A DNA stretch of 64,000 nucleotides from Centroscyllium fabricii (taxonomy: Eukaryota): assembly GCA_051313645.2 (NCBI GenBank), contig JBNRSN020000001.1:595448001-595512000 (forward strand), given 5' to 3'. The notes beneath the pieces were generated by a model. The model saw only the letters and a program-made list of their open reading frames with translations, ran no database searches and was not told where the DNA came from. A program made the position numbers and the translations under genes. Shown one piece after another: positions 4,998 through 64,000 of this stretch. The number at the start of each line of letters is the position of its first letter. Position 1 is the stretch's first letter.

Positions 4998-5910
4998 GAT
5001 TGGATGTATCCATTGAATTGTTTTTCCAAGTCGTTTATTATCTTAAGTAAAGCTTTTACTTCGTAGGCCTTAGCCTCCCACTAAAGCCAGGGTTAGTCCA
5101 GAGCTCTCTGACTGGTCATTAAATGCAGATTGTGCAGTCTGAGCATGTGCAGTTTGTCCAATTTCCCAGGCTGCTTTACACCATTTAGTCAGCTGAACAG
5201 TTGAATATTTTTCAGCAACTTCTAGCAGTTTTTGCTCAGTTGTTTTTCCAAAATTATTGGAAGAGAAGCCAGAGTTTGGGAGAGGGGAGAAGAGAAGGGT
5301 GTGAGACAGAAAAGGACGAGGAAAGACAGAGAGAGATACTGCAACACAAAGGGGTTAGGATTAAGGAGGAAGAGAAAGTTTAACAGAGAAACATAGAAGA
5401 TAGGAGCAGGAGTAGGCCATTCGGCCCTTCGAGCCTGCTCCGCCATTCAATTAGATTGTGACTGATCTTTCAGATTCAGTACCCTGTCCCTGCCTTCTCC
5501 CATATCGCTTGATCCCTTCAGCCTGAAGAAATATATCCAACTCCTTCTTGAATATATTTAATGAACCGGCTGATGCCTAATCAATAACTTCGGAGACTAG
5601 AAGTTGAGGAGTGAACTAAAGGCTTTTATTCACTAAGACATGAGCATGCCCATGCTAGTCGACTGATCCCAGAATGATTGGGGGAGGGAGACAGTCGCCT
5701 TTATACCTGGGTTCGAGGAGGAGGAGCCACAGGCAGGGTCAGCACGGGCATGCCCGGACAAGCTATACATGAAAGACTATGTACAAACAGTGCAGGTCAC
5801 ACACACAATGCATACAGATACAAACATGTATATATATATATATACACAGTGGTTTACCACATTCACCCCTTGTTTAAAATAAAGTCCGGCGGGGTAATGT
5901 TGGGCAACCA

Positions 5911-8767: not shown

Positions 8768-8869
8768 TGACTTACTAAGCGGTTGACTCTTGTCTTGGTC
8801 GAGGGTGATTGAGGCCAGGATCAGGTCTGTCGGGTCGGTGGAGGGGTCTGGGGCTTGGTCCCAAGATGG

Positions 8870-9814
8870 CTACCCCCGCTGCCCCCACGCGGCGGGCTGT
8901 GTGGAAGATGGCTGTGTCCAAGATGGCGCGGCTGGCTGTGTCCAAGATGGCGCGGGCGGCCACGCGGCAGGCTGTGTGCAAGATGACGCTGCCAGCTGTG
9001 TCCAAGATCGCGGCCCCCACGGGCCACACGCGGCGCTGCCGGGTTTGGGGGTCGATTGCGCTGCCGCTCTGCATACCTTGGCGTAGTATCCCTTCTTCCC
9101 GCACTTTGAACAGGTCGCGTCCCTTGCTGGGCAATTCCGTCTGGGGTGCTGGGCCTGGCCGCAGAAATAACATTTCGGGCCTTTCGAGGTTGTCGCCGCG
9201 GTCAGCTCGTCCACGGGTCACGATGCGGCCGGCTGTGTCCAAGATGGCGGTGTCCGCGATGTGCCCGCGTGGTCAGAGTTGTTGGCGGCCATATTGTGGG
9301 ACGCCAGGTCCAGTGAGTTCGCAAGCTCTACCGTCGCCTGCCGGTCCAGGCCATCCTTCTCCAACAGTCTCTGCCTGATATAGTCTGACCTGAGGCCGGC
9401 GACGTAGGCGTCCCTGATGAGATTTTCAGCGTGCACAACGGCCGTCTGTGCTCTACAATTGCAGGCCCGGCAGAGGACTCTCAGCGCTCGCAGGAACTCC
9501 ACGCTCGATTCCCCGGGTTGCTGCTTTCGGGTGGCCAGAAGGTGTCTGGCGTAGACCACGTTAGATGCCCGGGTGTATTCGCCCTTCAAGATTCTGACCG
9601 CCTCGGTGCAGGACGTAGCGTCCGCGATGATCGAGTACACCTGAGGGCCCACCCGGGCGTTGAGGAGGCGCAGTTTGTCCCTGTCCACCTGGACGATCGC
9701 GGCGGAGGCTTCGAGGTACGCCTCAAAGCAGGAGAACCAGTGCGTAAATGTGTTAGCGGCACCTGGCGCTTGGGGATCTAGTTCTAACGTCGCAGGTTTC
9801 AGCATTTGCTCCAT
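8870..9814 (-). pseudogene. gag of Gypsy A (frameshifted near 9215), two zinc knuckles
   Basis: ORFs 9218..9814 and 8870..9214; CYFCGQAQHPRRNC and CSKCGKKGYYAKVC. Confidence 0.85.
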
Positions 9815-10086
9815 GATGCAAACTTAGTGAATAAAATTGATGCCTAATCAATAACTTAGGAGACTAGAAGTTGAGGAGTGAACTAAAGGCTTTTATTCAC
9901 TAAGACATGAGCATGCCCATGCTAGTCGACTGATCCCAGAATGATTGGGGGAGGGAGACAGTCGCCTTTATACCTGGGTCCGAGGAGGAGGAGCCACAGG
10001 TGGGGTCAGCACGGGCATGCCCGGACAAGCTATACATGAAAGACTATGTACAAACAGTGGAGGTCACACACACAATGCATACAGAT

Positions 10087-11993: not shown

Positions 11994-12209
11994 TAATGAT
12001 CTAAACCAAGGAACATTCCTAGATTAACAAGTTAAATTATTGCAAACTGTCTCTATGTTTTATGTTTACACTGAATCTTACTTTAACATTCAGAGGGTTA
12101 CAAGAGAAAAGAGCACCAAGCCTGTCACAGAACTAGGGTCCAAACTTATCGCACAAGGGCAAATCATACTAAAATTAATGGTAGTAATGAAAATATTTAG
12201 TGGTCTTAC

Positions 12210-12786
12210 CTCAAGCCTCTGTACTATTTCCCTGATGTCATCTGCACAGTTTTCCATAGCAGACAGCAGGATGCATTCTCCTCTTTCATAAAAGATCTTT
12301 ATGGTCATTAATCCAGAGGTCCAGCCAATCACATCCCTACACGAGCAATTAAACACTACATTTTTAGAGTCTTGCTCTACGAGCACAATGAATTCATTGG
12401 AGATTCCGAGAAGACATTCAATATCGTTAGATTGGCCAAAGTCCCGAGCAATAACATTCCACACAATAGCTCCAAAACTGAACAGTTGCGCATCCTTCCG
12501 GGGTTTCGTCTTCTCCTTCTTCTTTGCCCCAAGCGTGATGAAGCTGAATTTCACAGAAGAGTCGACTGTTGCCGTAGTTACAAAGTTTTCTGCCAAATCC
12601 TTCAAGTACTCCTGTCTTGTTCTGGTGGCCATTGCCCGGAACTTCTCAGATTTGTGTGCTGCATTTTCTGCATTGATAACTTTGGCAAGAAGAAAGTCCC
12701 TGAAAACCGCTGATTTGGGAAAGGTGACACCTTTGGGAATAGGTGGGCCAAATGGTGGCACATCTTTAGACCTGGAGACAGCCACG
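12210..12786 (-). CDS. SIPA1L2: SIPA1L2 internal coding exon (end of RapGAP domain and following region), 577 bp
   Basis: Translation [76 protein letters not shown]...[10 protein letters not shown] matches SIPA1L2 as recalled. Acceptor ctaat...ctctttgaacacatacAG (AG at 12788-12787); donor GTAAGA at 12209. Confidence 0.93.
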
Positions 12787-13973
12787 CTGTATGTGTTCAA
12801 AGAGACACCACAATTAGATTTGTAAGAACAACTTCAAACTATAGCAGGTACAATTTGACTGTTATATAAATGAGAGGACAGAAACAAATACAAATAATAA
12901 CATGATACCACATCTATGCACATCCAAGCCCTGGTCGGTAAGGCTCAGTAGAACACAGTATGTGTCCACTGGGCAATCGCCAAATTAATACTTTACAGGT
13001 TACCAATTCAAAAGCAAATTTAATTGGATCTGGAATTTTCCCATTGGTCTCAACATAATTCATTTTTCTGCTCAACATATCTCTTAAAGGATGTATCTTG
13101 GCTTTCAAACTCCATCTTCTCCTATATACTGTAGAGCTAAAATATTTCTGCAAATACAGGGTACCTTTCATTGCTATGTACAATCTACCTTTTGTTCTTT
13201 TACCCGTTTTAATACTCTCATTAGTTATCAATGGGTGTTTGCTTAAAATGACTGCCAGAGCCTTCAAGCTAAATTTGACCTCCTTATACAGCCATGGTGC
13301 TTAGTGTTGCTATTTTCCCCTTTTATTTTATTGGGATATACTTCCTTTCCTTCAATGCATCTTGGAAAAAAAATCAATTATTCTCCAGCTTTAATTTTCT
13401 TTTATTGTTTCTCACTTAATGCTCCCTAAAGCTGTTCTCACAACTATGCTCCATGTGGATGGGTTATTTTTGGCCTTAGCCTTTCATTACAATAACAAAC
13501 TTAACCATAAAATGATTACTATAACTGCAATTTTTATCCACTTGGAGGTCACTGGTCAGTTCTGTTAAGAGTCCAAGATTAACACTTCCTGTACAATTGC
13601 ATCAGCAGGTTACGATCTCCTGATCATTTTGAGAGGCTAACCAATAGCAAATTAATAATTGGCCAAATGCTAACTAAAATGACTAATTCCCAACAATCCT
13701 GCCCTGCCTCCTATATTATTAATATTCTATATACCTTAGGTTTCACTGCGTCTATTTTCTGCTGGCAGCCTAGTTTCACGACGTCACCAACAGCAAAGCA
13801 CGATGGGCACTGGGTTACCAAATTAACAGTGCAGAATGACAGGCACTCTTGTTGACGGGACCCTTGAGAAATGCTGGCATTTTTTATGTGAAATGTCACT
13901 GTAGTGGCAGCTACAGAACAGCTAGTTACTAAAAGAGAAACCAGTCTTCAAATTCATGCAGAGCCATGGTGGA

Positions 13974-14189: not shown

Positions 14190-17100
14190 TGTGGGGAACT
14201 GAAGGTTTCCCACTTTTAAATATCGAAGAATGAAAGGTAAACAGCGGAGTAAACTGGAACATGTCTTTATTCAACAACTACACGAACTAACTCTTTGTGG
14301 CGCGAAACGGCAGGAAACCACGTGACCCGTGAGTGACAGTGCTATGGGCCTATTAGGTTCCGTGCCCGTTGATTCTATGGGCCAATGTGGCAACGGGGGC
14401 GGGACCAACCTACCAAAGAGGATTCTGTCTTAAAGCGAGGTCGGCTGTCCCAGGCTACTGCCTTAAAGGGAGACAGGCGTGCCTCCCTGGGTAGTTACGC
14501 TATACACGCCCCCCCCAGAATCCTCAAACACGTTGTATGTTAACTGCCGAGGAGGGACGACGCGGCGACTGGAGCGGGTGTGGTAAGGCGCACGTGCGGA
14601 GGGCGAGACAAGAGGGTTGTCAACTGGACTGGGCGACCACGGTGCTGCAGGGGCCGGGGGAGGGGAGGCAGGCGGATCGCCCGCGGGACTGAAAGACGAT
14701 GGTGCCGTAGGTGCCCGAGGAGGCGAGGTTGGAGGCGAGGCGGGGAGAGGAGCCGCACCCGGGGGCGTGACAACTAAGGTGTCAACCGGGGGCTCGCGAA
14801 AGAAAAAGACGGGCTCCTGATTAGGAGCGGGGAAATGATGCTCCTGTGAGGTGGGGTCCAAATGAGCCGGTTTGAGGCGGTCAATGGACACACAGTCCTG
14901 CCGGCCCCCGACCTCAAGGAGAAAAAACTTGTCCCCAGCCTGCTAAACTCGAAAAGGGCCCGTGTACGGTGCCTGTAAAGGCGATCTGTGGGCGTCACGA
15001 CACAGAAAGACAAATTGAGCCCGGTGGAGCTCGGTGGGGACATGAGACGGTTGCGCGCCATGCCGAGAGGTAGGCAACAGGAGGAAACAAAGCGCTGCGT
15101 CATTGTGCTGGGCAAGTTGCTCCCTGGCGGACCAGTGTTCAGTGGTGGAGGGGAGAAATTCCCCAGGGATGCGTAGGGGCTGTCCAAAAACAAGTTCGGC
15201 AGACAAAGTGCCGAGGTCGTCTTTGGGGGGCCGAGCCCAGGCCAAGCAAGACCCAAGGGAGCCTGTCTAGCCAATTAGCATCGACCAGGCTAGCCCTGAG
15301 CGAGGCCTTGAGGGCGCGGTGAAAGCGTTCACAAATGCCGTTGGCCTGCGGGTGATATGCAGTGGTGCGGTGCACCTGTGTGCCCAAGTTGGTGGCCACG
15401 GCATTCCAGAGCTGGGAAGTGAATTGCGGGCCCCTGTCAGAAGTAATGTCCGACGGTACGCCGAACTGGGCTACCCAAGAGAAAATGAAGGCACTTGCCA
15501 CGTCGGCTGCCGTGGTGGAGGCTAAGGGGACAACCTCTGCCCACCTCGTAGTGCGGTCGCCGACCAAAGAAGATGGGTAAAACCCTGCGACGGGGGCAAT
15601 GGGCCGACCAGGTCCACGTGGACATGGTCGAAGCGCCGTTCAGGTACAGAAAAATCGTGCAAAGGGGCCTTAGTGTGTTTATGAACGTTGGCGCGCTGAC
15701 AGGCTTGACAAGTGTTGGTCCAGTCACGCACATTCTTGTGTAACCCGGGCCAAACAAATGTGGTTGACATGAGCTTCTGTGAAGCTCGCATACCAGGGTG
15801 TGAGAGACCGTGGACCAAGTCAAAAATGCGTCTACGCCAGGAGGCGGGTACTAAGGGCGTAGGTGTGGGCACGGACACGTGTCACAAAAGTGTGGTGCCT
15901 GCAGTGTGAAAATGGACATCAGCTAACTTGAGGCTGGTGGATGCGGAACGGAGAACTTGCAGATCCGCGTCCTGCCGCTGAACATGTGCCATTTCGGCGT
16001 AGTCGACGTGCACGTGCACTGCCTGTAGGGAAGGACGTGAGAGGCAGTCTGCCACGACATTGGCCTTGCCGGACACGTGGCGGATATCAGTGGTGAATTC
16101 TGACACGAAGTTTAAATGACGCTGTTGGCGTCCGGACCAAAGCTCTGCAACCTTGGACATCGCGCAAGTGAGGGGCTTATGGTCTACATAGGCTGTAAAA
16201 GGACGACCCAAAGCAGAAATGGCGCACAGCGAGAAAAAGAGCTAACAGTTCCCTGTCAAAGGTACTGTATGAGAGTTCATTTTTCCTCAACTGCCGGCTA
16301 AAAAAGGCTAGGGGCTGCCAACAACCGTCCACCCACTGCTGCTGAACTGCGCCAATTGCGTAATTGGAGGCATCCATTGTCAGTGATAGTGGGGCGTCAG
16401 GAACGGGGTGAACCAGTAAGGTGGCCTCCAACAGGGCCGCCTTAGCCAGGCAGAAAGCCTGAACCATGTCGGCGGACCACTGGAGAGGATCCTTCCCGGT
16501 CTTACCCCTAGTAGCCTCATAAAGGGGGCGCGCGATGGAGGCTGCCCGGGGAATAAACCTGTGGTAGAAATTAACCATCCCCAGGAATTCCTGGAGGGAC
16601 TTAACCACCTTAGGTTGGGGGAAATCCGCAACCGCCTGTACCTTGGAGCGCATGGGAGATATGGTGTCCCAGGAAATCGATTGTAGGGAGGCCGAATTGG
16701 CACTTGGTAGGTTTGACAATCAGGCCATGCTGGGCCAATCGTTGGAAGAGAGAGCGCAGGTGTAGCACATGTTGAGACTCGCTCGAGCTTGCAATTAAAA
16801 TATCGTCCAGGTATACAAACAAAAAATCTAAGTCTCTCAACACAGTGTCCATCAGTCGCTGAAAAGCTTGCGCTGCGTTCTTCAATCCAAAAGGCATGCG
16901 TAGAAACTCGTACAGTCCAAATGGTGTAATGACAGCGGTTTTTTGGACGTCATCAGGGTGGACGGGAACTTGGTGGTACCCTCGCACGAGGTCAACCTTG
17001 CAAAAAATGGTGGTGCCAGCCAAACGGGCCGAGAAATCCTGGATGTGGGGTACTGGGTACCTGTCCGGTGTGGTAGCCTCATTGAGGCGTTGATAGTCCC

Positions 17101-18825
17101 CGCACGGTCGCCAACGTCCTCCGGGCTTGGGGACAATATGGAGCGGGGATGACCACGGGCTGTTGGAGGGCCTAACGATGCCCAACTTCTGCATTGCCGA
17201 AAATTCCTGTTTGGCTGCGGCCAACTTGGTAGGGTCGAGGCATCTGGCTCGTGCGAAGACTGGCAGACCGGTGGTCGAAATATGGTGCAGAACGCCGTGC
17301 TTAGTAGCTCCTTCTGAGAAAGTTGGTTGATGATGACGGGAAATTGGGCCAGGAGGCTTGTGTACTTATCGCTGGGTGGCGGGGAGCAGGAGCTCACGAG
17401 CGGGCCATCGCTACTCTGACAGGGGAGTGATGCAAAAGTGGATGCATCCATCAGGCGCTTGCCGCGGACGTCGACCAATAGGCCGTGTGCACAGAGGAAG
17501 TCCGCCCCCAATAATGGGTGTGCAACATTTGCAATAACGAAGTCCCATGTGAAGCGTTGTTCGCCTAGCATAATTTCTGCCCGCATCTTGCCGAACGTGG
17601 CGATGGACGTGCCGTTGACTGCAACGAGGGGTGGGTCCGTGTGGCCAGACCGTCGTTCGGTACGCGTTTCCGGTAAAATGCTAAGTTGGGCCCCAGTGTC
17701 GCAGAGAAATTTGCGATTTGATAAAACGTCGGAGACGTAGAGTAGGCGGCCTACTGTGCCTATGGCATTAGCAGCAGCTGGACCCTGGCGACGTTGCGGT
17801 TTGGGAGAGCGTGGTTTAGGTCGGCTCTCCTTGTTGTCGAAGGCACAGGGTGGTCGACAGCGGTTGGCCTTCGCGCCGAAGCGCGCGTGATAGCAGAGCT
17901 CTGGTTGCGGGCGGGGCGTTGGCTGCTGTGCAGGAGTTGAGGGCTTCGCGGTGGCACACTTGGAGGGCGCGCATTGACATACCCGATCAGCTGCGGCTGC
18001 CAGTTCTGCATAGTCATCGGTGTGCACGTTTGCCAATGCAGATTGCACGGGTTGGGGCAGGCGGCGGACGAAGAGTGCCCGGAATAAAGGGCAGTTTCTG
18101 TGGTCGCCCAGTAGGGCGAGCATACGGTTCATCAACCGCGTGGGCGAAGAATCGCCTAACATCGGGAGTTCCAGTAGTTGTCGGGCCCGAATGGCCTCAG
18201 GTAGGTCGTGGGCCTGCAACAAATGTTTTTTTAAGGGCGGCGTACCTGTCAGCTGCTGGCGGGTCTCAAAGCAGGTCGATGATGTCGGCAGCCACATGAC
18301 TCGGTAGGGCCGCAACGGTGAGAAAGTATTGATCCTCATCGTCCGCGATGTGTTTAATCCGAAACTGCGCCTCTGTATTGACGAACCAGGCTGTTGCCTG
18401 GTTTTCCCAAAAGGTTGGGAGGCTTGCATTCGACGGCCGTTCTTGTTGCCTGGCCGCGGAGCGCGCGTTCTGGGCAGCTACTTCTTCATCTGCCATTCGG
18501 GGTCACTAATTGTGGGGAACTGAAGGTTTCCCACTTTTAAATATCGAAGAATGAGAGGTAAACAGCGGAGTAAACTGGAAGTCTTTATTCATCAACAACT
18601 ACACGAACTAACTCTTTGTGGCGCGAAATGGCAGGAAACCATGTGACCCGTGAGTGACAGCGCTAAGGGCCAATCAGGTTCCGTGCCCGTTGATTCTATG
18701 GGCCAATGTGGCAACGGGGGCGGGACCAACCTACCAAAGAGGATTCTGTCTTAAAGCGAGGTCGGCTGTCCCAGGCTACTGCCTTAAAGGGAGGCAGGCG
18801 TGCCTCCCTGGGTAGTTACGCTACA
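14190..18825 (-). mobile_element. Gypsy LTR retrotransposon B (CsRn1/Kabuki-like), full length; 5' LTR 18511-18825, 3' LTR 14190-14504; TSD CCTT
   Basis: 315-bp direct repeats; CCTT on both flanks. tRNA-Trp-type PBS T(A)GTGACCCCGA follows the 5' LTR; PPT is tggggggggcgtg. Gag LPTFW..AWF..EAQF and a CHCC-type box CYHARFGAKANRCRPPC. Confidence 0.95.
14540..18496 (-). pseudogene. gag-pol of Gypsy B, multiple frameshifts
   Basis: LCDTGA protease; VDLVRGYHQ and YLDD RT; MDASNY RNase H; HGLSHPG..CQAC, SDRGPQF and NGICER integrase, spread across about 8 ORF fragments. Confidence 0.9.
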
Positions 18826-25192: not shown

Positions 25193-25350
25193 CTGTAGCA
25201 GACATTCTCTGTACATGGATTATGAACTCTGACAATGACAAAAACATGTTGGAAGTGAGAGCGGATGTTTCTGGGAGTGAAAGGAAGTGCTCCAGGCTCT
25301 TGAAAGACAATTGTGACAATGTCATTTCCTATGTGTCTCTTCCTTAAGAG
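25193..25350 (-). CDS. SIPA1L2: SIPA1L2 preceding coding exon (RapGAP catalytic region), 158 bp; not in the ORF track
   Basis: The reverse complement reads cttccctAG|[54 protein letters not shown]|GTAAGC and contains the RapGAP KRHIGND motif. The terminal AG plus the first C of the 12786 exon forms Ser, so the phases match. Confidence 0.93.
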
Positions 25351-25769
25351 CTAGGGAAGTACAGAAACAGAGGTCCAGTTAGCCAGGTTTGAACGACAGA
25401 TTCGCTGTCGTCTATAACTACTGCATCCAGTTAATAATCTCTCCAAAACTCTCCAAATATGATTAATGCTTGAAATTAGTTCATTATCTTCATAGGTAAA
25501 TAAATCAGTTAATATCCTTTCTTCATTTTGTGTCACATTTCTTTCATTAGTAAAACAGAAGTAAGTTGCAAATGTATCATTGTTGAAGCGGATTTTACCA
25601 GTTGAATGGGAAATATTTCCCCTTTCCCTTTTTTACAAAGTGCCGAGTTCTAAAACTAAATTCAAAAATCAAAATATATGACTGAGCAGGGGACTGAGAT
25701 ACTTGAGCTATTTCACAGACAATGTCTGTCAAATGGTTTTTAAACCGAGTCCACAATAATTCTTTAACT

Positions 25770-29188: not shown

Positions 29189-32100
29189 ATGGAGAGTAAC
29201 GCAGTGAAACTGGATCGCCTCGACATAAATCCTCAGGCACCCGATGCTGCTAACGACTTCGAACACTGGTTTGGCCTGGTCGAGGCCTACATGAAGGCCA
29301 TAAAGGCTACGAGTGATGAGGACAAACTCCAGGTACTCTCATCACGGATCAGCGGCCGGGTGTACTCTTTTATCCGCAGCCTCAACACTTACGAGGAAGC
29401 GGCCAAGAAATTAAAGGACTGCTGCATGCGGCCGGCCCACTCGGTCTATGCCAGGCATGTTCTGGCGACCAGAAGACAACGACTCGGTGAGTCAAATGAA
29501 CAGTTTCTACTAGCGCTCCAAGCCCTCGCACGGGCCTGCGACTGCCATGCAAGGACAGCGGAGGAAGAGGCGAACCTCCTAATCAGAGATGCCTATGTGG
29601 CTGGACGCAGGTCCAGCCAGGCCCGCCAGCGGCTGCTGGAGCAGGACACACTGTCGCTTGAGTCCGCGATAACGCTTTCTAATGCGGTGGACGGAGCGCT
29701 TCGAAAGCTGGAGGCGGACGGAGATCACGGCTCCCACTGTACCCCTGACCCCTGGGCGACACAGCGACAGGCCGAGACCCCCATGATGGCAGCGGCAACT
29801 GCGAAGACACTGGCGGGGCACAGATGCTATTTCTGCGGCCAAGGAAAGCACCCGCGGGCGCACTGCCCTGCGAAGAATGCGACCTGCGCGTGGTGCGCGA
29901 AGAAGGGGCACTACGCGAAGGTGTGCAAATCCAGCCCAGCCTCCACCTCCAGACCCAACAGCGCGGCCTGCGAGAACAGCGATGCCACTCCCATCGCTCC
30001 AGGTACGGTGTTGCAGCGTGACCCAGCAGCGGTCAGCCGGGGGTAAATCGCGGGCGCCTCAAGCCCCTTTAATTGTACGGCGGAGGACGCCCGCGCGCGC
30101 GGCACAGGCGCTGCCACAATAAACGCGACCGCGACCGGCCATGTGCGACCCCCCGGCACCGCCATCTTGTCCACCGCGGTTGGCCGCGTGCGAACCACGG
30201 GCGCCGCCATCTTATCCACTGCGGTCGGCCATGTGCGACCCCCAGGCGCCGCCATCTTGTCCACCGCGGTCGGCTGCGTGCGAACCACGGGCACCGCCAC
30301 CTTATCCACAGCGGTCGGCCATGTGCGACCCCCCAGCGCCGCCATCTTGTCCGCCGCAGTCGGCTGTGTGCGAACCACGGGCGCCGCCATCTTATCCACA
30401 GCGGTCGGCCGCGTGCGAACCACGGGTGCCGCCATCTTATCCACAGTGGTCGGCCGCGTGCGAACCACGGGCGCTGCCATCTTGTCCACAGCAGCCGGAC
30501 ACGTGCGAATCGCCAGCGTCGCCATCTTCTGAGCGGCCATCTTGCCAACTGCCCCAGCCGGGGCCCCAGATAACGGAGGGCCCCCACTCACACTTCGGCC
30601 TCAGCCACCGTCGATCAGGCTAGGTCGCACACCTTGTCCAACTCCATGATGGGGATTAAGGTGGACGGGCACGCCACTAGCTGCCTGTTCGACACCGGTA
30701 GCACAGAGAGCTTCATACATCCCGACACAGTGCGGCGCTACGCACTGCAGACCCAGCCCACGCACTACCAAGTCTCCCTTGCCTCAAAGTCTCACACGGC
30801 GGACGTCACTGGCTACTGCAGCGTCACGCTCACGATCAGCGACCGCATTTACCGCAACTTTAAGTTGTACGTACTCCAGCAGCTGTGCGCCCCAGTCTTA
30901 CTGGGACTGGATTTCCAGTGTCAGCTGAAGAGCGTGACGATGGATTTCAGTGGAACCCTGGCCCCCCTCACCGTCAGTAGCCGGGACAATCGCAACTTAA
31001 CGCGGAGCTCAACTTGTGGCCTGTCCACATAAAAAGTCGACCCCCCCCTCACTGTTCGCCAATCTCGACCCTAAATGCAAGCCCATTGCTACCAAAAGTC
31101 GGCGTTACAGTGCAGGGGACCGGGCGTTCATCAGGTCGGAGGTCGAGCGCATGCTGAAAGAAGGGATCATTGAGGCCAGCACCAGCCCCTGATGGGCCCA
31201 GGTCGTAGTGGTTAAGACGGGTGAGAAACTGCGCATGGTCATCGACTATAGCCAGACGATTAACCGCTCCACCGGGCTCGATGCCTACCCCCTCCCCAGC
31301 ATCTCGGATATGGTAAACCAGATCGCCCAGTACAAGGTCTTTTCCACAATCGACCTCAAGTCGGCGTATCACCAACTCCCCATCCGGAAATCCGACCGCC
31401 AGTACACCGCCTTCGAGGCGAACGTCCGGCTCTACCACTTCCTCCGGGTCCCCTTCAGTGTGACCAACAGGGTGTCGGTGTTCTAGAGGGAGATGGACCA
31501 CATGGTTGACCAGAACGGGTTGCAGGCCACCTTCCCCATCTTGGACAACGTGACCATCTGCAGCCAGGACCAGCAGGACCACGATGCCAACCTCGCCAAA
31601 TTCCTGCACACGGCGAAACGGCTGGACCTAACGTACAATAAAGAGAAGTGTGTGTTTAGTACGGATCGGCTCGCTATCCTCGGATACGTGGTGGAAAACG
31701 GGGTCCTCGGCCCCGACCCACAGCGTATGCGCCCCTTGCAAGAGCTGCCTTTACCTCACAACCCCAAAGCCCTGAGGAGATGACTAGGGTTCTTTTCTTA
31801 TTATGCGCAATGGGTCCCCCAGTACGCGGATAAGGCCAGACCTCTCCTCAAGGCCGACGTCTTCCCCCTCTCGGAAGAAGCCCAAACAGCATTCGCTCGG
31901 ATCAAGGAAGACATCATCAAGGCGACCATGCACGCCGTTGATGAGTCCATTCCCTTCCAGGTGGAGAGTGACGCTTCGGACTTTGCCCTTGCCACCACCC
32001 TGAACCAAGCAGGCAGGCCCGTAACGTTTTTCTCCCGGACCAGACAGGGACCCGAAACTCGCCACTCAGCGGTGGAAAAGGAGGCCCAGGCCATTGTGGA

Positions 32101-33442
32101 GGCAGTGCGCTACTGGCGTCAGTACCTGGCCGATAAGCGTTTTACCCTGCTCACTGACCAACGGTCGGTGGCGTTTATGTTTAATAATAAACAACGGGGT
32201 AAGATCAAGAATGATAAGATCCTTCGGTGGCGGATCGAACTCTCGACTTACGAGTACGACATTCTTTACCGCCCAGGCAAGCTCAACGAACCCCCGGACG
32301 CACTGTTCAGGGGAACGTGCACCAGCGCCCAGCTTGACCGGCTGAAGGCCCTCCACGATCGCCTCTGCCACCCGGGTGTCACCAGACTCGCCCACTTCGT
32401 CAAATCCCGTAGCCTCCCCATCTCCATCACGGAGATAAAGGCTATGACCAAAGAGTGCCCTGTCTGTGCCGAGTGCAAACCCCAATTCTACAGGCCAGAC
32501 ACGGCGCACGTCATCAAGGCCACCCGCCCCTTTGAACGCCTGAGCGTGGACTTCAAAGGCCCCCTCCCCTCCACTGACCGCAACTCGTATTTCCTTACGG
32601 TCATAGACGAGTTCTCACGCTTCCCCTTTGCCTTCCCCTGCCCAGACATGACGAGCGCAACGGTGATCAAACACTTCACCACGCTGTTCGCCATTTTCGG
32701 TCTCCCCAGCTACATCCATAGCGACCGGGGATCGTCGTTCATGAGCGACGAACTGCGTCAGTTCCTGCTTCAGAAAGGGGTTGCCTCAAGCAGAACGACC
32801 AGTTACAACCCCCGGGGGAACGGCCAGGTAGAAAGGGAGAACGGGACCATCTGGAAGGCGGTCAACCTGGGCCTGAAGTCCAGAAGCCTTCCAGTTTCCT
32901 GTTGGCAGGAGGTCCTCCCAGACGTGCTCCATGCCATCCGCTCTCTGTTGTGTGCCGCCACTAACTCAACACCTCATGACCTGTTGTTTTCCTTTCCCAG
33001 GAAGTCGACTTCGGGGACAGCACTCCCGCTGTGGCTCACAGCGCAGGGGCCAGTATTGCTTAGAAAGCACATCCGCAGCCACAAGACCGACCCCCTGGTG
33101 GAACGGGTGCACCTGCTCCACGCCAACCCGCAATATGCTTACGTGGCATTCCCGGACGGGCGCGAGGATACAGTCTCGATCAGGGACCTGGAGCCCGCTG
33201 GGAGCACTAGGGCAGAACCCCCGGTCGAGCCTCAGCCCGACCAGCCACCACCCACCGAATACTGGCCCCCATATATACACACACCGGGGCCCTCAACACC
33301 ACCGATCGATGACCCGGGATCGGACACCGCACCGCTGGCAAAGAGCTCGATCCCGGCCCTGCAACCGGCACCACCATTGCCGGCACCCCGGCGGTCCCCC
33401 AGGCAGACGCGACCGCCAGAGAGGCTAATAACGCAATGCTAA
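29189..33442 (+). pseudogene. gag-pol of Gypsy C, several nonsense mutations
   Basis: LFDTGS, IDLKSAYHQ, ILDN, ESDAS, HDRLCH..CPVC, DFKGP and SDRG motifs. Stops near 31030, 31190, 31484 and 31781. Confidence 0.9.
30134..30545 (+). repeat. 45-bp tandem array (about 9 units, partly alternating as a 90-bp unit) between gag and protease of Gypsy C
   Basis: GCCATCTT recurs at 30161, 30206, 30251, (30296), 30341, 30386, 30431, 30476 and 30521. Confidence 0.92.
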
Positions 33443-35547
33443 TTGTTAATGGACATAGAGATTTTTTTTCACCAGAAGGCACGTTCACCCCACCGGACTT
33501 GTTTTTAAAGAAGGGGTGAATATGGTAATTGTGTAAATACCACTGTAAATAGTTGATGGCACCTTGGTATTGTATTGTAGGCCAGGTCAGCCACACCCTT
33601 AACTCCTCCCCTCAGGTCGGAGCATATAGGTGAGTGCTGCCCTGCCCCTGCTCATTCTTCGCCTTGAACTCATCAGGAGACCAGCTCCATTGTTAGTTAA
33701 TAAAAGCCTATAGTTTAGGTAACTACTCGTCTTTGCGTTTTAATTGACGATACGTCAAGTGCACTCTGTGTCTTCTAACATTATATTCTCGTTACTTCTG
33801 GCATCCAGGAAATGGTTTACTCTAATATTTCCCGAATTTATAACTAAAATTAAATCATCTGGAAGGCAAACCATCTTTGAAATTGATCATTTAGATGCAG
33901 CACAAGTTAAATGGAAATGTATCAAGTGAACTATAAAAACAGTTTAGATACCATCCAAAGATTAATTTTTTCAGCCTTTGAGGCAGAGTGGTAGATTGAC
34001 CACTTCCTGCTAGTGCTGTACTCTATCTGAATGGGCTTGGAGGATTCGAGAGATGTAATCTTATGGGAGAAAACTGGTTCTATCAGCTTATCACAGCTAA
34101 GTACTGGTTATGAATTTGGCAAGATCTACAACCCATTGCCAACAGCCCACCCTTGTTATAAGCACTCATTCATTGCACTATTGCTGTTGCAGTAATTTGG
34201 GGTCTTGGCTTATGACCTTTCCAAGTTCATAGCTCTCAAATACTGTTCAATCAAGCATTATGCTAGAGTATGGATACACAGCAATAATGGTGCAGTTTTG
34301 CTAAATAAATTCATACCGTTTCATAACTAATTTTAATTCTATTAATTTGCATAACCATCTGCAGCCTAGTGCTCCTGAGGAATGCTCAGGTGCACTGAGT
34401 GGTGTCTGAGCTAGACTGACAGTGAAGTTGTCCCTGTGCAGATAGAGTTTTATAGCATTCCTTCTCTGATATCGTACAGCCCATTTAGGTTTGATGCTTG
34501 GTTATCAGACAATCACTGGTACATAAAAGTGCTTGACTACCAAGGATCATAAAATTATGACCCGACAGATTTCCAGAACTTGCAGTTCTTAATGGATGGG
34601 CAGAGATATTCTTCATATTTTATCGTTCCTAATTTTGCATGGGGTCTGTACCTTCCACACTTGTCCCCTGGTACATGCTGCATTTTCCTCCTGTGAGGGA
34701 ATGAATCTCCCTCTAACTGCTCCACCACTGAAGCCCCTAGCTAATTTTCCATTGCAATATTTGACTGTGGATGTAAATGAACAAAACTGAGAATTTCGTT
34801 TAAGATTTGCAAAAGCAGTGCAATTTGGGAACTGCGTGCTATTTTTACACTGCTAAGTACAGCAAACCTGTTATTTCACATGTATGCAAGTTCTTCACAT
34901 CCACTTGGTTTAGTTAAAATGAGCCATATGTTATAAATACAGCCTCGAATTTGCGCTTTTTTCCCCCAACTAAAGCAATTGTAGAACAGCTTACTCTTGC
35001 CCATTATACCGATGGAAATTATTTTGGGTGGGGAAAGAGATGGTTTCAATTAAGCTTTACTGAACTTAATGGTGAACATTGGGATACAATAGTTTGCATG
35101 CCAACAATTTAGCAGAGTTTTACCCCAGCACGATGAGATCATTTATTTATTTATACCATTACCCATGTCCTTGTGTTTTCTCTACCTGTAGTGAACATAC
35201 ACCAGACCGTTTCACTGAAACGTTGACTTGTCTTTTCTCTTTACAGGTTCTAATTGTCTTGCTCAGTATTTAATACATTTGTTGCTTTTGTTCCAGACCT
35301 CTAGCATTTGCAGTAATTTAATTTATTTATGATCCATGAGACAGACCCTTAAACATATCTCCTGTGTTGATGTCGCAGGATCTTATTCTTGTAGTACCTT
35401 CTCATGCTCCACTTTACCTCAAGTGTTGTTCTGTACCTTCTTCCAACTCTGGATTTAAGACCAACCGTCCACATTGACATAAGAACACAAGAATTAGGAG
35501 CAGACCAGTCCATACAGCCCCTCGAGCTGCTCCGCCATTCAATAAGA

Positions 35548-47373: not shown

Positions 47374-47667
47374 GAGTTTGGTTAGTGGGAGAGTTCGGGC
47401 AAGTGGGAGGTGAGGGGGGTGCTTCTCTGTCTTTGCTTCTGTCCCAACTCTTAGGTTCGGCTAGCGCCGCAGAAGAGGAGCGGCAGGGAAATTGGAAGAA
47501 GGTTGGTAATCAGCTTGTTGGTAAGTACTCTTGCTTCCCTTTTACTCTTTATACCTCATAGGTGGAAAATGCTCTTAAATAGAGTGATATTTAGCTATAT
47601 TGGGGCAAAGGTTTTTTTTTTTCCCTTTTGCGTAGCTAATAATAATAAGTATAATTAAATATATAGA

Positions 47668-48622
47668 ATGGGTGAGCAGGTGATGTGTTACTGCTGTGAG
47701 ATGTGGGAGTTCGTGGACACCATTGATGCTCGCGGTGACTACATTTGCAGCAAGTGTTTGTTGCTCGAGGAACTCCGGCTTCGTGTTGATGAGCTGCAGT
47801 CCGAGCTTCAGACACTGCGACACATCAGGGAGGGGGCGAGTTACCTGGACTTTGTGTTGCAGGAGATAGCCACACTAAATAGATTAATTAACTTAAATGT
47901 AGATCATGGCCAGGGACAGGATGGTGTGACTATAAGTGAGGCAGGTACGGGAATCCAGGAGGTAGTGTTGGAGGAGCCGCAGACCTTGCTCTTGTCCAAC
48001 AGGTTTGAGGCTCTTACTCCCTGTGAGGGCGGGAGCGGGGACTGTGGAGAGGATGAGCAACCTGGCCACAGCACCGTGGAGCGGGGGGCCATTCAAGAGG
48101 GGGGAGTTAATAGAAATGTTGTAGTGGTAGGGGACAGTATCATCAAGGGGATAGATAGGGTTCTATGCAACCGAGAGCGGGAGTCCCGAAGGCTGTGTTG
48201 CCTGCCCGGTGCCAGGGTTAAGGACATCTCTTCTGGGCTGGAGAGAAACTTGCAGTGGGAGGGTGAGGATCCAGTTGTCCTGGTACATGTTGGTACCAAC
48301 GACATAGATAAGACAAGGAAGAAGGTTCTGTTACAGGAGTATGAGCAGCTAGGGGTCAAACTAAAAAACAGAACCTCAAGGGTAATAATATCTGGGTTAT
48401 TACCTGAGCCACGAGCGAATTTGGCTAGGGTAAATAAAATTAGGGAGTTAAATGCGTGGCTCAAAGACTGGTGTGGGAGAATTGGGTTTTGCTTCTTGGG
48501 ACACTGGCACCAGTACTGGGACAGGAGAGAACTGTTTCGGCGGGACGGGCTTCACCTGAACCGGGCTGGGACCAGTGTCCTGGCGAATCGTATAACTAAG
48601 GCTGTAGAGAGGGCTTTAAAAC
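47668..48622 (+). CDS. CR1 ORF1p: zinc finger, leucine zipper and SGNH esterase domain (reads on into ORF2 in this copy)
   Basis: CYCC..CSKC; LEELRLRVDELQSELQTL; GDSI, LPGA, HVGTND and DGLH blocks. Confidence 0.9.
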
Positions 48623-51611
48623 GAATTAGTGGGGGGGAGGTTTCTAGAGGGCAAATAAATAAAATGACACTGGAGAAGGTAATGGACATAGGTAACAACG
48701 GGGCAATTAACAGACAGTGTGTGTCAGGAAAGGAAAGAATGTATGGAGATAAAGGTAAAGTTGAAAAAAGGGAAAAAGCAGGAATGAAGTGTCAGACATA
48801 TTTGAAAGTCCTTTATTTGAATGCACGTAGTATTCGTAATAAAATGGACGAGTTGACGGCACAAATAGTTACATATGGGTATGATCTTGTGGCAGTTACG
48901 GAGACATGGCTACAGGGTGACCAGGACTGGGAATTAAACATACAAGGGTATTTAACGATTAGGAGGGACAAGCGGGAAGGAAGGGGAGGTGGGGTGGCTA
49001 TGTTAGTAAGGCAAGGTATCACGGCAATACAGCGGAATGATATTGGCTCAGAGGATCAAGATGGTGAAACAGTTTGGGTGGAAATAAGAAATAATAAAGG
49101 GAAAAAAACACTGGTGGGCGTAGTCTATAGGCCTCCAGACAGTTGTAACACAGTTGGTCGGAGTATAAATCAGGAAATAGTTGGGGCTTGTAATAAGGGA
49201 ACAGCTATAATTATGGGCGATTTTACTTTCATATTGACTGGACAAATCAAGTTGGACAGGGCAGCCTTGAGGAAGAGTTCATTGAGTGTATTAGGGATGG
49301 GTTCCTTGAACAGTACGTAACTGAACCGACCAGGGGGCAAGCAATCTTGGATCTGGTCCTGTGTAATGAGACAGGATTAATTAAAAATGTCCCAGTAAAG
49401 GATCCCCTTGGAAAGAGTGACCATAACATGGTCGAATTCCAAATTCAATTAGAGGGTGAGAGGGTTGGATCTCAAACAAGGGTACTGAGCTTAAATAAAG
49501 GAGACTATGATGGTATGAGAGCAGAATTGATTAAGGTGGACTGGGGAAACAGATTAAAGGGTAAGACGGTACATGATCAGTGGTGTGTATTCAAGGAGTT
49601 ATTTTATAACTTTCAAGAAAAATATATTCCACTGAGGAATAAGGGGTGTAAAAGAAAAAACAACTATCCGTGGCTAAGTAAAGTAATAAAGGAGAGTATC
49701 CGACTAAAAACAAGGTTATATAAGGTAGCTAAATCTAGTGGGAAGATAGAAGATAGGGAAGCTTTTAAATGTCAGCAAAAGATAACAAAAAGATTGATTA
49801 GGAAAGGGAAGATAGATTATGAAAGTAAATTAGCAAAAAATATAAAAACAGATAGCAAGAGTTTCTATAGTTACATAAAAAGAAAACGGGTGGCTAAAGT
49901 AAATGTTGGTCCTTTAGAGGATGAGACCGGGAAATTAATGGTAGGAGACATGGAGATGGCAAAAGCGCTGAACAAATATTTTGTATCAGTCTTTACAGTG
50001 GAGGACACTCAAAATATCCCATCATTGGATAAACAGGTGGCTCTAGGGGGGGAGGAGCTAATTACAATTAAAGTAACTAAGGAGGTGGTACTCGGGAAAA
50101 TGATGGGACTTAAGGAGGATAAATCCCCTGGACCTGATGGCTTACATCCTAGGGTCTTGAAGGAAGTGGCGGTAGGGATTGTGGATGCGTTGGTAATAAT
50201 TTTTCAAAACTCACTGGACTCGGCAAAGGTTCCGGCAGATTGGAAAACTGCTAACGTAACGCCCTTATTTAAAAAGGGTAATAGACAGAAGGCTGGAAAT
50301 TATAGACCAGTTAGCCTAACATCTGTGGTTGGCAAAATGTTAGAATCTATTATTAAGGAAACAGTAACAGGGCATTTGGATAAACACCATTTAATAGGAC
50401 AAAGTCAGCATGGTTTTACAAAGGGGAAGTCATGTTTGACAAATTTGCTAGAGTTCTTTGAGGACATAAAATATAGGGTGGATAAAGGGGAACCAGTGGA
50501 TGTGGTGTATTTGGACTTCCAAAAGGCATTTGACAAGGTGCCCCACAGAAGATTATTACTCAAGATAAAAAATCACGGGGTTGGGGGTAATATTCTGGCA
50601 TGGGTGGAGGATTGGCTTTCTAACAGAAAACAGAGAGTTGGGATAAATGGTTCGTTCTCAGACTGGCAGTCAGTCATTAGTGGTGTCCCGCAAGGGTCGG
50701 TGCTGGGACCCCAACTCTTTACAATCTATATTAACGATTTGGAAGAAGGGACCAAGTGCAACATATCAAAGTTTGCGGATGACACAAAGATGGGAGGGAG
50801 GGTGATGAATGAGGAGGACATTAAAAACCTGCAAAAGGACACAGAGAGGCTAAGTGAGTGGGCAGAGATTTGGCAGATGGAGTATAATACTGGAAAATGT
50901 GAAGTTATGCACTTTGGCAGGAAAAATAATAGAGCGAGTTATTATCTAAATGGAAAGGAACAGGAAAGTACTTCAGTGCAAAGGGATCTGGGGGTCCTGG
51001 TGCAGGAAACACAAAAAGTTAATATGCAGTTGCAGCAGGTGGTAAGGAAGGCCAACGGAATGTTGACTTTTATTGCTAAGGGGATTGAGTATAAAAGCAG
51101 GGAGGTCTTGCTGCAGTTGTACAGGGTATTGGTGAGACCACACCTGGAATACTGCGTGCAGTTCTGGTGTCCCTATTTAAGAAAGGACATACTTGCTCTC
51201 GAGGCAGTGCAGAGAAGGTTCACTAGGTTAATTCCGGGGATGAGGGGGCTAACATATGACGAGAGGCTGAGTAGATTGGGCCTCTACTCATTGGAGTTTA
51301 GAAGAATGAGAGGCGATCTTATTGAAACATATAAGATTGTGAGAGGGCTTGATCGGGTGGATGCGGTGAGGATGTTCCCAATGGTGGGTGAGACTAGGAC
51401 TAGGGGGCATAATCTTAAAATAAGGGGCTGCCATTTCAAAACTGAGATGAGGGGGAACTTCTTTACTCAGAGGGTGGTGGGGCTGTGGAATTTGCTGCCC
51501 CAGAGAGCTGTGGAAGCTACTACGTTGAATAAATTTAAAACTGAGATAGACAGTTTCCTGGAATTAAAGGAAATTAGGGGTTATGGTGAGCGGGCTGGTA
51601 AGTGGACGTGA
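48623..51611 (+). CDS. CR1 ORF2p: APE endonuclease plus reverse transcriptase; single 1-nt deletion near 49224
   Basis: LNARS, VTETW, YRPP, MGDF and SDH (EN); KSPGPDG, YRPVSL, QHGF, DFQKAFD, PQGS and FADD (RT). No nonsense codons apart from the frameshift. Confidence 0.9.
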
Positions 51612-60815: not shown

Positions 60816-61633
60816 ATAATCCGAAAACTAATGAAATATATTAAGGGCAGGATAATGTAGTTTCCATATATGGCTCGGTCAACTTTATTGAACACAAGGG
60901 AATTAATTCAAAATGATTGCCACTGCTACACAAATCTCCCTTTTTCTCTAACTACCCTGGGGTAGAATTATGGGGCCATTAGTGAGTTTTAGCCCACCTA
61001 GAGCTTCAGCTTCACAAATCTCAAAGCATCAGAGTGCACATGCTGTGTGATGTTGGATGGTTTCTGTTGACGCAATGTATTGCCCACACATGCCAACTGT
61101 CTGTGTTTTACGTGAACAATTGCCCACATTTGCTGATGAAAATCTGTGGGGATTTAAAATTCCTGTTTGTTCCACGAGCCATTGTGGCAACATAATGTGA
61201 CTCCTGCATCCAGCAGGAGATAGTCATGTGAAGCTGTAGATTTGATACACTCTGCAGTGCACCTCAATGGATTACTGGTGTAGAATTAACAAAGTTCTGA
61301 TAAGAAATAGGAGCAGGAGTAGGCCGTAGAGGCCTCGATCCTGCTCTGCCATTCAAGAAGATCATGGCTGAACTTCTACATCAACTCCACTTTCCCAGCG
61401 ATGGGGTTCAATCATTCATTCAGTGGGATGCAACAAAAGTCAAGAAAAAAAAACATAAGCTACAGTGTGAGAAGTGTGCAGGAATCTCAGCTCCTGTCCA
61501 TCATAATGCTAATGTAACCCAGGTTGAACTGGAAGAAGCTAAGCCAAGGATATTGGACCTTGAAACACAGAACCAAAGCAGCAGTAACCAGCTATATCAA
61601 GCAAAGAAGGAGTGCAGTGGTCTACATGAGGAG

Positions 61634-62254
61634 GTACATTGCAGGAAGTCCAGAAAAGGATGAAGAAACTAGATCAGCAATACAAAGAAAGAATAAGAAA
61701 TGCAGAGCTTTTTCTGCAACTGGAGACAGAGCAAGTGGAATGGAATTATATTAAAGAGAAAAAGGGCAGCAGTGAAGGAATTTGAAGATAAAAAGATTGA
61801 GTTTAAAAAAAACCTGATTGCCGAATTAGAAGAGAAGAAAAAGATGATTGAGAATGAGAGACTAACAATGGAACTCACTGGAGATTCTATGGAGGTGAAG
61901 CCAATTATGACCAGGAAGTTGAGGAGGAGACCTAATGATCCCGTTCCAATTCCAGACAAAAGACAAAAACCTGCACCTGCGCAGCTAAATTACTTGTTAA
62001 CAGAGGAACAGATTATGGAGGATCTGCGAACTTTTAATAACCTCAAATCTCCAAAAACACCAGCATTTCCTTCTTCTCCTGAGCATCCTCCCAGCACGCC
62101 AGCTGAATCGCCAGCACAGAGATATGAAGCACGATTAGAAGATGGAAAGTTGTATTATGATAAGAGATGGTATCACAAAAGTCAGGCTACCAATCTGGAA
62201 TCCAAGGAGAATACGAAGATCAGCTGTGTAATTAGCTCAGTTGGAACAAATGAG
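61634..62254 (+). pseudogene. SUDS3: Processed (intronless) SUDS3 fragment, +1 frameshift in the A-run near 61760
   Basis: [36 protein letters not shown]...[10 protein letters not shown]...[32 protein letters not shown]...[17 protein letters not shown]...[11 protein letters not shown]. Confidence 0.9.
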
Positions 62255-62573
62255 GATGCCAGTGATGATGAAAGCAAAGGAGAGCTGCTTTCACTGCGAA
62301 ATATAGAACGACTGCATAAAAAACCTAAATCAGATAAAGAAACTCGACTAGTAACAGCAATGGCTGGGAGATCTGAGAGAAATGAATTTGTGAGAAAGAG
62401 AAACAAGCTGAATCCATATGCAAGCACAACCAACCAGGACAAGAAAAAGAAAAAGAATTTTATGATGATGAGATACAGTCGTAATGTGAGATCAAAAGGC
62501 AAACGTTCCTTCAGAGACAAGCAGACTGCTCTGCGGGATGCTCCCTTGAAAAGAAAAACAGTTGATGAAATGA
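62255..62573 (+). pseudogene. SDAD1: Processed SDAD1 C-terminal fragment fused in frame to SUDS3
   Basis: [30 protein letters not shown]...[44 protein letters not shown] matches the SDA1 C-terminus as recalled. Confidence 0.88.
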
Positions 62574-64000
62574 ATCCATGAACTTTAGGACATTTACGGA
62601 ATTTTATTTTTCCCAATCAAAGTAAGAAGCTTTAGAATTGGAGTCTGATAGTAATGAAGAATCGCTCAGATCCTCTCCTCAAAGAGAAAGGGAGTTAACC
62701 AAACCGATAACAGCACTTAAAAACTAAACAGTACAGTAACTAGGACGGAGAGGTCATTCGAGATTGAGTTCCACAAAAGGGAAGAAATATAATGGCATCA
62801 GAAGACTACCAGGAAGAGTATGCTTTTTGTTTCAATGAAGGACGCTGGTTCTTTTCAGTTCCGTGACTCAGTTTTATGGTAAGAAGTTTCCAGCGCGCGC
62901 ATGCGCTGTTTTTTGACAGTTGGAGGTGAATTTTCTGGAACTACGGTGGAAGCTTTCAGCTGTTTTAGTATCGCGCGCGCCGGTGCGGTTTGACAGTTGG
63001 TGGTCTGCTCTTAGAGATAACACCTCAGATCCCAGCTACTCGACCCTCCGACATGGTAGCCTTCGCCTCACTGTCACAGATTCCTTTGATAAAAAGTGAA
63101 TAATTAAAAAGATAAAAAGAAATCGTTTGTGGATAAATTAAGAAAAAATACAGCAATTGTTTTAAGAAGTCATCAAAATCCTCCTGTGCTGTCGGCGGGA
63201 CCCTGGACGGATCCACTACTTGGACATCCCTCACCTTCCCATCAGAGGACAAAGATTTTCCTGATTTTGGACGTCTGGTACTCTTTTAAATTTTAAGAAA
63301 AAAAGAACTTTCTTTTTGATTCCATTTCCTTTATTGGATTAACATTTCTCCATTCGATTATTACCCTGGATCCGAGCAGTGAACTTAAAAGACTTTGGAA
63401 AGAACTGTGATTTTTTTTAACTTGATTATTATATTGTATGTTTTTTTCCCCCAAAACCGAGATCTCATTTTATTTTGGGTATTCATTTTTCTGGCCAGTA
63501 TGATTTACAAATGTAATGTGTAAACAGCTCTATATATATTGAAATTGGACCTTTGTTACAAAACCAGATTAGATACAAGAGAGAGCACAAACGAAAGACA
63601 TATTTTAAAATAAATACCTTTAGTAACCCAAACTTGTTAATGGGCATTTCTTGGGGTGGATGTGTGATATAGTGGATGCATGTACCAGTCTCCTATGAAC
63701 CTAGATTACATATGGCAGTTCACATTGCAGCATAAGGCAGCGGCTACCGTATTACACCAGCTTCATGCTACCGCTACTAAAAGGCAGAAGGTGGGATCTG
63801 TGTTGAACTAAAGAAAAGGTCCTTGAATGAGTGCTGGCAACGTGGCAGCTTCCTAAAGCTGCTCCTCTCCCTGTAACGAGCACACCCCCTGACATTGCGC
63901 CGCAGCTGCCGAGTGTGATGCCACTATGTCAGTCTTTGCCCCAGCTTTCAGTTCAGTGAGTCTCAGACTTATTTTTCAATAAATCTGTGGCGGCTGATGC

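Follow-up and report, generated by a model that had tools for sequence, protein, structure and literature searches.

The intronless fusion of SUDS3 and SDAD1 coding sequence in the Centroscyllium fabricii window (the whole stretch of 64,000 nucleotides analysed here, to which positions refer unless a contig is named) is best read as cargo of a solo LTR from a pol-less Gypsy family. The pieces of this cargo were likely joined by reverse transcriptase (RT) switching templates at short shared sequences, and the enzymes were likely provided by a related Gypsy family. We give this reading a probability of about 0.88. Nearly all of the significance of the locus lies in the LTR family and hardly any in the SUDS3-SDAD1 reading frame.

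RESULTS

A solo LTR with a chain of host mRNA fragments

A sequence-only reading of this DNA had described a free-standing retrocopy at 61634 to 62581. Neither the bounds nor the free-standing status could be kept: the real unit extends from 61513 to 63756 and holds three further genes, and the SUDS3-SDAD1 piece is LTR cargo, one of dozens of related chimeras. The unit is a plus-strand LTR of 2,244 bp whose TGTAA...TTACA ends are identical in sister copies; in the window and its sisters these form TG...CA ends with short inverted tips. The tip of about 16 nt (61513 to 61528, plus strand) is the sole 5' part common to subfamilies with differing cargo, and in other subfamilies it precedes unrelated sequence. 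At the 3' side lies an 874-bp core (62883 to 63756, plus strand) with CpG-rich short repeats, an AT-rich part, an AATAAA at 63609 that is conserved in 24 of 29 copies, and the terminal TTACA. The LTR promoter probably lies within this core. A TATA box at 63531 (26 of the 29 copies) was set aside as part of an AT repeat. Searching with the 3' 357 bp of the core gave 436 first-look candidates, 40 of which were scored. The core module was present downstream in 24 of the 28 SUDS3-bearing loci, the window included, each of these loci being inspected over 10 to 30 kb.

Sister copies show a primer-binding site, which we take to match tRNA-Arg, 3' of the LTR, or a purine tract 5' of it. Eighteen copies with both ends and neither of these signals were classed as solo, and 15 of them were scorable: the 4-bp target duplication was exact in 6 of the 15 and matched at 3 of 4 positions in two more. 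The window itself has CTAA on the left (61509 to 61512) and CCAG on the right (63757 to 63760), a match at 2 of 4 positions that counts against our account. The earlier reading had seen no target-site duplication; the family does make such duplications, at the LTR ends. The identical ends, the target duplications, and the primer site or purine tract in sisters together identify the unit as an LTR and the window copy as solo. Its flanks had no match in any other locus inspected, and its imperfect target duplication may reflect either decay or ectopic recombination. A DNA transposon of the Ginger or Pack-TIR type, with its short inverted ends, was ruled out by the missing introns, the primer site, the purine tract, and the paired LTRs, and an endogenous retrovirus, weighed for the 4-bp duplication, by the PNMA-type gag and a Gypsy-like complete relative. 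The target sites of solo LTRs tend to have C/T-rich starts and purine ends (CAAG, CCAG, CTCA, and TTAG), and several insertions lie inside CR1-type repeats. On contig C933 (16.64 to 16.74 Mb), related LTR copies (L139 and L141 to L143) lie 10 to 20 kb apart, possibly as a tandem or segmental array.

Between tip and core, the window LTR carries, in order and on the plus strand, EVI5, SUDS3, SDAD1, SYCP2, a 65-bp piece, and KCTD19. The EVI5 mRNA fragment (61513 to 61638), named by homolog search, consists of parts of two spliced exons (88 to 90% identity to parent exons on contig C113) and overlaps the tip through microhomology. It is followed by eight spliced exons of SUDS3 (61634 to 62254) and four of SDAD1 (62251 to 62626), the latter entered inside an exon and ending in the 3' UTR. 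Next come a SYCP2 exon fragment (62624 to 62701; 91% to the parent exon on C380 and 81% to sawshark SYCP2), the 65-bp piece (62702 to 62766), and the first coding part of KCTD19 as an exon fragment (62767 to 62894; parent exon on C667, and 96 to 98% identity to shark KCTD19). The 65-bp piece is present only here and in one sister LTR, and a search for its parent source found none. SYCP2 and KCTD19 are meiotic germ-cell genes. The block of SDAD1 tail, SYCP2, and KCTD19 recurs in one sister LTR, and in another subfamily SDAD1 exons reach across the window's SDAD1 entry point.

That SUDS3 continues into SDAD1, as had been read from the letters, is borne out by structure and domain matches, multi-exon parents, and read contigs. 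The plus-strand frame is open from stop to stop at 61697 to 62581 (294 codons), and its ATG at 61700 gives 293 amino acids (61700 to 62581), made up of about 21 out-of-frame codons, SUDS3, SDAD1, and a frameshifted tail. In the PDB, residues 18 to 187 match SDS3 (E 9e-21) and residues 188 to 287 an SDA1 homolog (E 6e-40), and the second part also matches Pfam SDA1_C (1.9e-12). The 7.2-Gb genome was searched for parents and copies. The SUDS3 parent is a multi-exon gene on contig C822 (486270406 to 486263015) and the SDAD1 parent a multi-exon gene on C711; these are different large contigs, and neither is the window's. Relative to these genes, the exons are joined without introns at about 96 to 97% identity (20 mismatches and 1 gap in 619 columns for SUDS3, 13 mismatches and 2 gaps in 378 columns for SDAD1). 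An AT-AC intron of the SUDS3 parent, of the minor spliceosome type, is removed exactly in the LTR copies. The SUDS3-SDAD1 join itself was found as a single copy in the genome search.

The LTR lies antisense in an intron of a SIPA1L-type gene, as proposed, since minus-strand exons of this Rap-GAP gene flank it on both sides. They lie at 12.1 to 12.8 kb (exon 12093 to 12833, which carries the Rap_GAP domain), at 25.2 to 25.4 kb, and about 9.5 kb beyond the window end; the exon downstream of the LTR-holding intron was placed by motif scan at approximately 25200 to 25360. We take the paralog to be SIPA1L2. A high-copy SINE-like repeat (61303 to 61397; 3606 first-look candidates) lies a short way 5' of the LTR, so that an upstream frame of 119 amino acids is spurious. 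Other elements in the introns of the host gene, at 5900 to 9900, 14400 to 18500, 29200 to 33500, and 47600 to 51600, are of the Gypsy and CR1/L2 types and have long open frames.

Template switching at the junctions

All 26 copies that cover window position 61849 have a T there in place of the C seen in the parent and in mRNA-like contigs from two other organisms, which suggests that SUDS3 was captured once. By this shared base, a single original capture followed by many different replacements behind it appears likely. Most SUDS3-bearing copies start at window 61513 and leave SUDS3 at varied points for different coding-like sequence.

Eleven junctions had both donors alignable, and in 6 of them the partner was a sister LTR rather than a parent gene; four SUDS3 exit types without an identified partner were left out. 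The longest shared runs close to the switch were 5, 4, 3, 1, 2, 5, 5, 9, 5, 8, and 1 nt, a mean of 4.4 nt compared to 1.6 nt for random joins, and none of 200,000 resamplings reached 4.4. A stricter metric gave 2.9 versus 0.75. For the KCTD19/core junction the low script score of 1 was retained, while 12 shared nt are seen by eye. Together with the exon-internal switch points, this microhomology supports RT template switching, the first of the two routes suggested earlier.

The other route was a fusion derived from splicing, favored because both ends of the SUDS3 piece were thought to coincide with exon boundaries. Alignment to the C822 parent confirms this coincidence, which would rarely be expected from switching by pure chance and so counts against template switching. 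It is also what a trans-spliced or read-through SUDS3-SDAD1 transcript, later retroposed, would predict. However, SDAD1 is entered 27 nt before an exon end, at a non-acceptor site after GAG, with TGAG shared and without a pyrimidine tract, and this exon-internal break indicates that splicing did not make the fusion. Moreover, the two parents lie on different large contigs, the piece sits inside an LTR without a poly(A) tail, and the SUDS3 exits in the 28 copies are exon internal save for one type. We consider such a transcript very improbable. Splice capture at the EVI5/SUDS3 join is ruled out in the same way, because the switch out of EVI5 lies within an exon, at a purine run that the SUDS3 exon junction shares.

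The one exit type on an exon end is common to the window and three sisters, and the sisters suggest an explanation for it. In all three, the last captured SUDS3 exon runs into sequence from the exon that precedes the first captured one, matching it at 20 to 21 of 22 nt, and WDR26 comes next; the window retains only 4 nt of this upstream exon. The exact out-of-order join at this point in the sister LTRs is thus the probable reason why SUDS3 stops at an exon end. The same join is present in a DNA-run contig. Four RNA-like contig sets from other organisms contained linear SUDS3 joins and separate parent mRNAs only, and such contigs drop rare forms. As an exact join of a later to an earlier exon is a mark of back-splicing (PMC4897178, in the part of that paper available), a circular SUDS3 RNA probably served as template, judged from the DNA copies. 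At the switch point (62251 to 62258, plus strand), SDAD1 shares 4 nt with linear SUDS3 mRNA and 8 nt with the sister LTRs that bear the out-of-order join. This longer match would account for the coincidence with the exon end as well as for the place where the window copy switched.

The fused reading frame

The continuity of the frame across the join is likely a matter of chance in a decaying copy, and the fused frame is likely dead. Its first 21 or so codons, including the ATG, are out of frame, as is the EVI5-SUDS3 join. Two frameshifts had been noted earlier: the 2-bp loss at 62555 in the SDAD1 tail is confirmed in read contigs, whereas X1 and X2, two DNA-sized runs that are possibly the assembled samples themselves, each supplied one contig counted over the 1-bp gain at about 61764, and neither contig shows it. 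Relative to the parents, the frame differs by 18 replacement changes (725 sites) and 9 silent changes (190 sites), and the resulting pN/pS of 0.52, which includes changes on the parent lineages, does not differ significantly from neutrality (P 0.14; simulation P 0.18 to 0.29).

These data also bear on whether the fusion is maintained as a functional chimeric gene. About 265 codons are open across the join, the point estimate of pN/pS is below 1, and the upstream frameshift is unconfirmed in reads, all of which would suit such a gene. On the other hand, the ratio is not significant and is mixed with parental changes, the start and the tail are out of frame, the neighboring EVI5-SUDS3 join breaks the frame, and the SUDS3-SDAD1 join is a single copy. 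We regard a maintained gene as highly unlikely. The window copy is likely silent as well, because its cargo would lie upstream of the putative LTR promoter.

Cargo across the family

The search with the SUDS3 part gave 102 candidates; of the 40 scored, one was the window itself, one a parent exon, and 38 lay elsewhere. Sister LTRs carry WDR26 and pieces that match the Pfam families Qua1, MBD, XendoU, PDE8A_N, MAD, SNF2, IMD, TPX2, CCDC144C, NAP, and HAP1_N. Together with the five of the window, this makes at least 17 families of host genes. Further cargo pieces we take to be CEP112, CFAP57, kinectin, and PPP2R2. The cargo is almost always in the sense orientation: Pfam matched 17 sense frames (the 110 longest of 197 were searched) and no antisense frame (the 100 longest of 245 were searched). 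One antisense piece (IMD-like), spotted by eye, escaped this control. It lies in L193-L194, where SYCP2 residues 1273 to 1318 stand ahead of residues 676 to 716, out of order, in both LTRs. In L149 (contig C1044:86063089), an intronless WDR26 piece follows a GC-rich segment shared by several LTR cargos.

An alternative for this variety is that LINE-made processed pseudogenes were inserted one after another into existing LTRs. The genome is LINE rich, and later insertions of LINEs and SINEs are indeed present in LTR copies. The cargo junctions, however, have neither poly(A) tails nor internal target duplications, and the pieces come from within mRNAs, are almost all in sense orientation, meet at microhomology, and replace their neighbors rather than interrupting them. 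The marks of an L1-type pseudogene (poly(A), a 3'-complete mRNA, and a target duplication around the mRNA) are absent at the window cargo, and none of the copies examined was a continuous empty LTR with the tip adjoining the core and cargo flanked by duplications. The probability of successive LINE insertions is therefore slight, smaller than that of a retroposed fusion transcript.

Complete elements and a putative helper

The same cargo was found in both LTRs in all three testable two-LTR elements, which means that cargo is copied as part of the LTR. A fourth element was left out, as little of its 5' LTR is in the DNA examined. Divergence within the pairs is 5.4%, 5.6%, and about 6.5%, computed after two repeat matches of 71% were removed. 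The complete element on contig C1 (L118-L119) has EVI5 cargo in both LTRs and a 3.2-kb interior (143589563 to 143592750) with a decayed PNMA-type gag (match E 7.6e-9), a zinc knuckle, a Y-box mRNA fragment, a short tail, and then the purine tract. Nine further interiors have this layout, and the interiors of the family measure about 3.1 to 3.4 kb. The gag is decayed in the copies inspected, and the place of pol is taken by the spliced-looking fragment of a Y-box protein; in the four elements that cover the whole stretch between gag and the purine tract, there is no space for pol. The L195 interior has an extra coiled-coil piece that is also known as LTR cargo, and cargo thus moves between interior and LTR.

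A related and complete Gypsy family is a plausible helper that could supply the enzymes in trans. Its gag is 51 to 56% identical to that of the window family, its frames reach 2104 amino acids, and RT, RNase H, and integrase are present. In the three of its copies that were inspected, the tip, the end, and the primer site are the same as in the window family where visible, and the purine tract is similar; the remaining DNA similarity is limited to short motifs and 55 bp. No complete element bearing the LTR core of the window family was found.

The read contigs, finally, make an assembly artefact negligible: although the contigs bridging the SUDS3-SDAD1 join (62226 to 62307 in X1 and 62229 to 62307 in X2) have just 29 and 26 letters left of 62254, below our 31-letter rule, and come from what are perhaps the assembled samples, they cross it with zero differences in both samples, zero-difference contigs also span four other junctions, among them both LTR insertion edges and the SDAD1-SYCP2 join, and DNA misassembly could not remove introns.

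DISCUSSION

The family can be understood if RT, copying RNAs that are packaged together, switches templates at short shared sequences. Integration may need only the terminal 16 or so nt of U3, and any RNA copied between tip and core would then survive and come to stand in both LTRs. The chain would be reshuffled by repeated switching among RNAs of the element and mRNAs of germ cells, and recombination between LTRs would leave solo LTRs such as that of the window. For the window copy, an LTR RNA with the join of the last SUDS3 exon to the upstream exon probably met SDAD1, as mRNA or in an SDAD1-bearing LTR, via the 8 shared nt. The start of SUDS3 on an exon end could reflect the AG|G that it shares with EVI5, and its finish the inherited out-of-order join.

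A wider reading, which we favor by a narrow measure, is that nearly the whole U3 serves as an exchangeable cargo bay. Hundreds of LTRs would then hold distinct mosaics of germ-cell transcripts, with mRNAs of meiotic genes and one or more circular RNAs among them; each replication cycle would reshuffle these mosaics, and solo LTRs would disperse them. If this is true, the family shuffles exons continually and preserves a fossil record of the RNAs packaged with element RNA in the cartilaginous-fish germline. The system also offers LTR elements a route to multiply host exons twice per insertion. Its solo LTRs resemble orphan chimeric retrogenes without poly(A) or target duplication and would mislead gene annotation in sharks and rays, and its nested switch points make dozens of natural template-switch events measurable in one family. 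Sense copies of essential and meiotic genes in a repeat context could possibly feed small-RNA silencing of the parents.

The closest known system, as far as the available parts of the papers cited here go, is the LTR-mediated retroposition in animals described by Tan et al. (2016, PMC5131818). There, joins have a median microsimilarity of 6 bp, a mouse locus can hold up to four genes plus an Alu, Drosophila retrocopies replaced internal ORFs in all cases, and vertebrates have 3 to 10 retrocopies each. The window family is similar in its partial, intronless mRNA pieces without poly(A), flanked by LTR-element sequence and with microsimilarity above chance at the switch points, and also in having several genes per locus that are mobilised again as non-autonomous elements. 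Its interior Y-box piece fits the internal-ORF replacement of that study. What differs from the main text of that paper, in which the word solo does not occur and whose supplements could hold LTR-internal cases, is that the cargo here lies inside the LTR, in both LTRs, and persists as solo LTRs that are repeatedly refilled.

Dong et al. (2016, PMC4897178) described circRNA-derived pseudogenes of mouse circRFWD2 and, in the part of the paper considered here, left the mechanism open. Our family shares with these the exact join of a later to an earlier exon, the lack of poly(A), and amplification in an LTR context. Here, however, no more than 22 nt of the upstream exon is present, the putative circle is deduced from DNA, and the join is one link of an LTR cargo chain with mapped switch points, which offers a concrete mechanism for such pseudogenes.

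Among plant elements, as described in the passages available, maize Bs1 is one LTR element with three captured host genes, and barley BARE-2 had foreign sequence brought into its LTR region by template switching (PMC13317346). The Bs1 cargo is a single fixed set, unlike the varied cargo here, and the BARE-2 insert is another retrotransposon, whereas ours is host mRNA. TR-GAG elements (PMC8704663, likewise in part) resemble the window family in having two LTRs and gag without pol and in being mobilised in trans, by a helper that in our case is putative. They are plant elements with intact gag, whereas the window family has decayed gag of the Gypsy/PNMA type and host cargo. In vertebrates, the capture of KITLG and nectin3 by crocodilian ERVs (PMC4299795) is a further case of host mRNA captured and amplified by an LTR element; those captures are, in the part of that paper available, of single genes, in the internal region and under purifying selection, unlike the window family.

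In our search of full-text literature, which covers neither subscription papers nor Repbase, no paper was found that describes mosaics of host mRNA within LTRs, or a shark or ray family of this kind. The mechanism, LTR-mediated retroposition, is known, and the LTR as a repeatedly refilled cargo bay is, within the literature searched, a new aspect of it.
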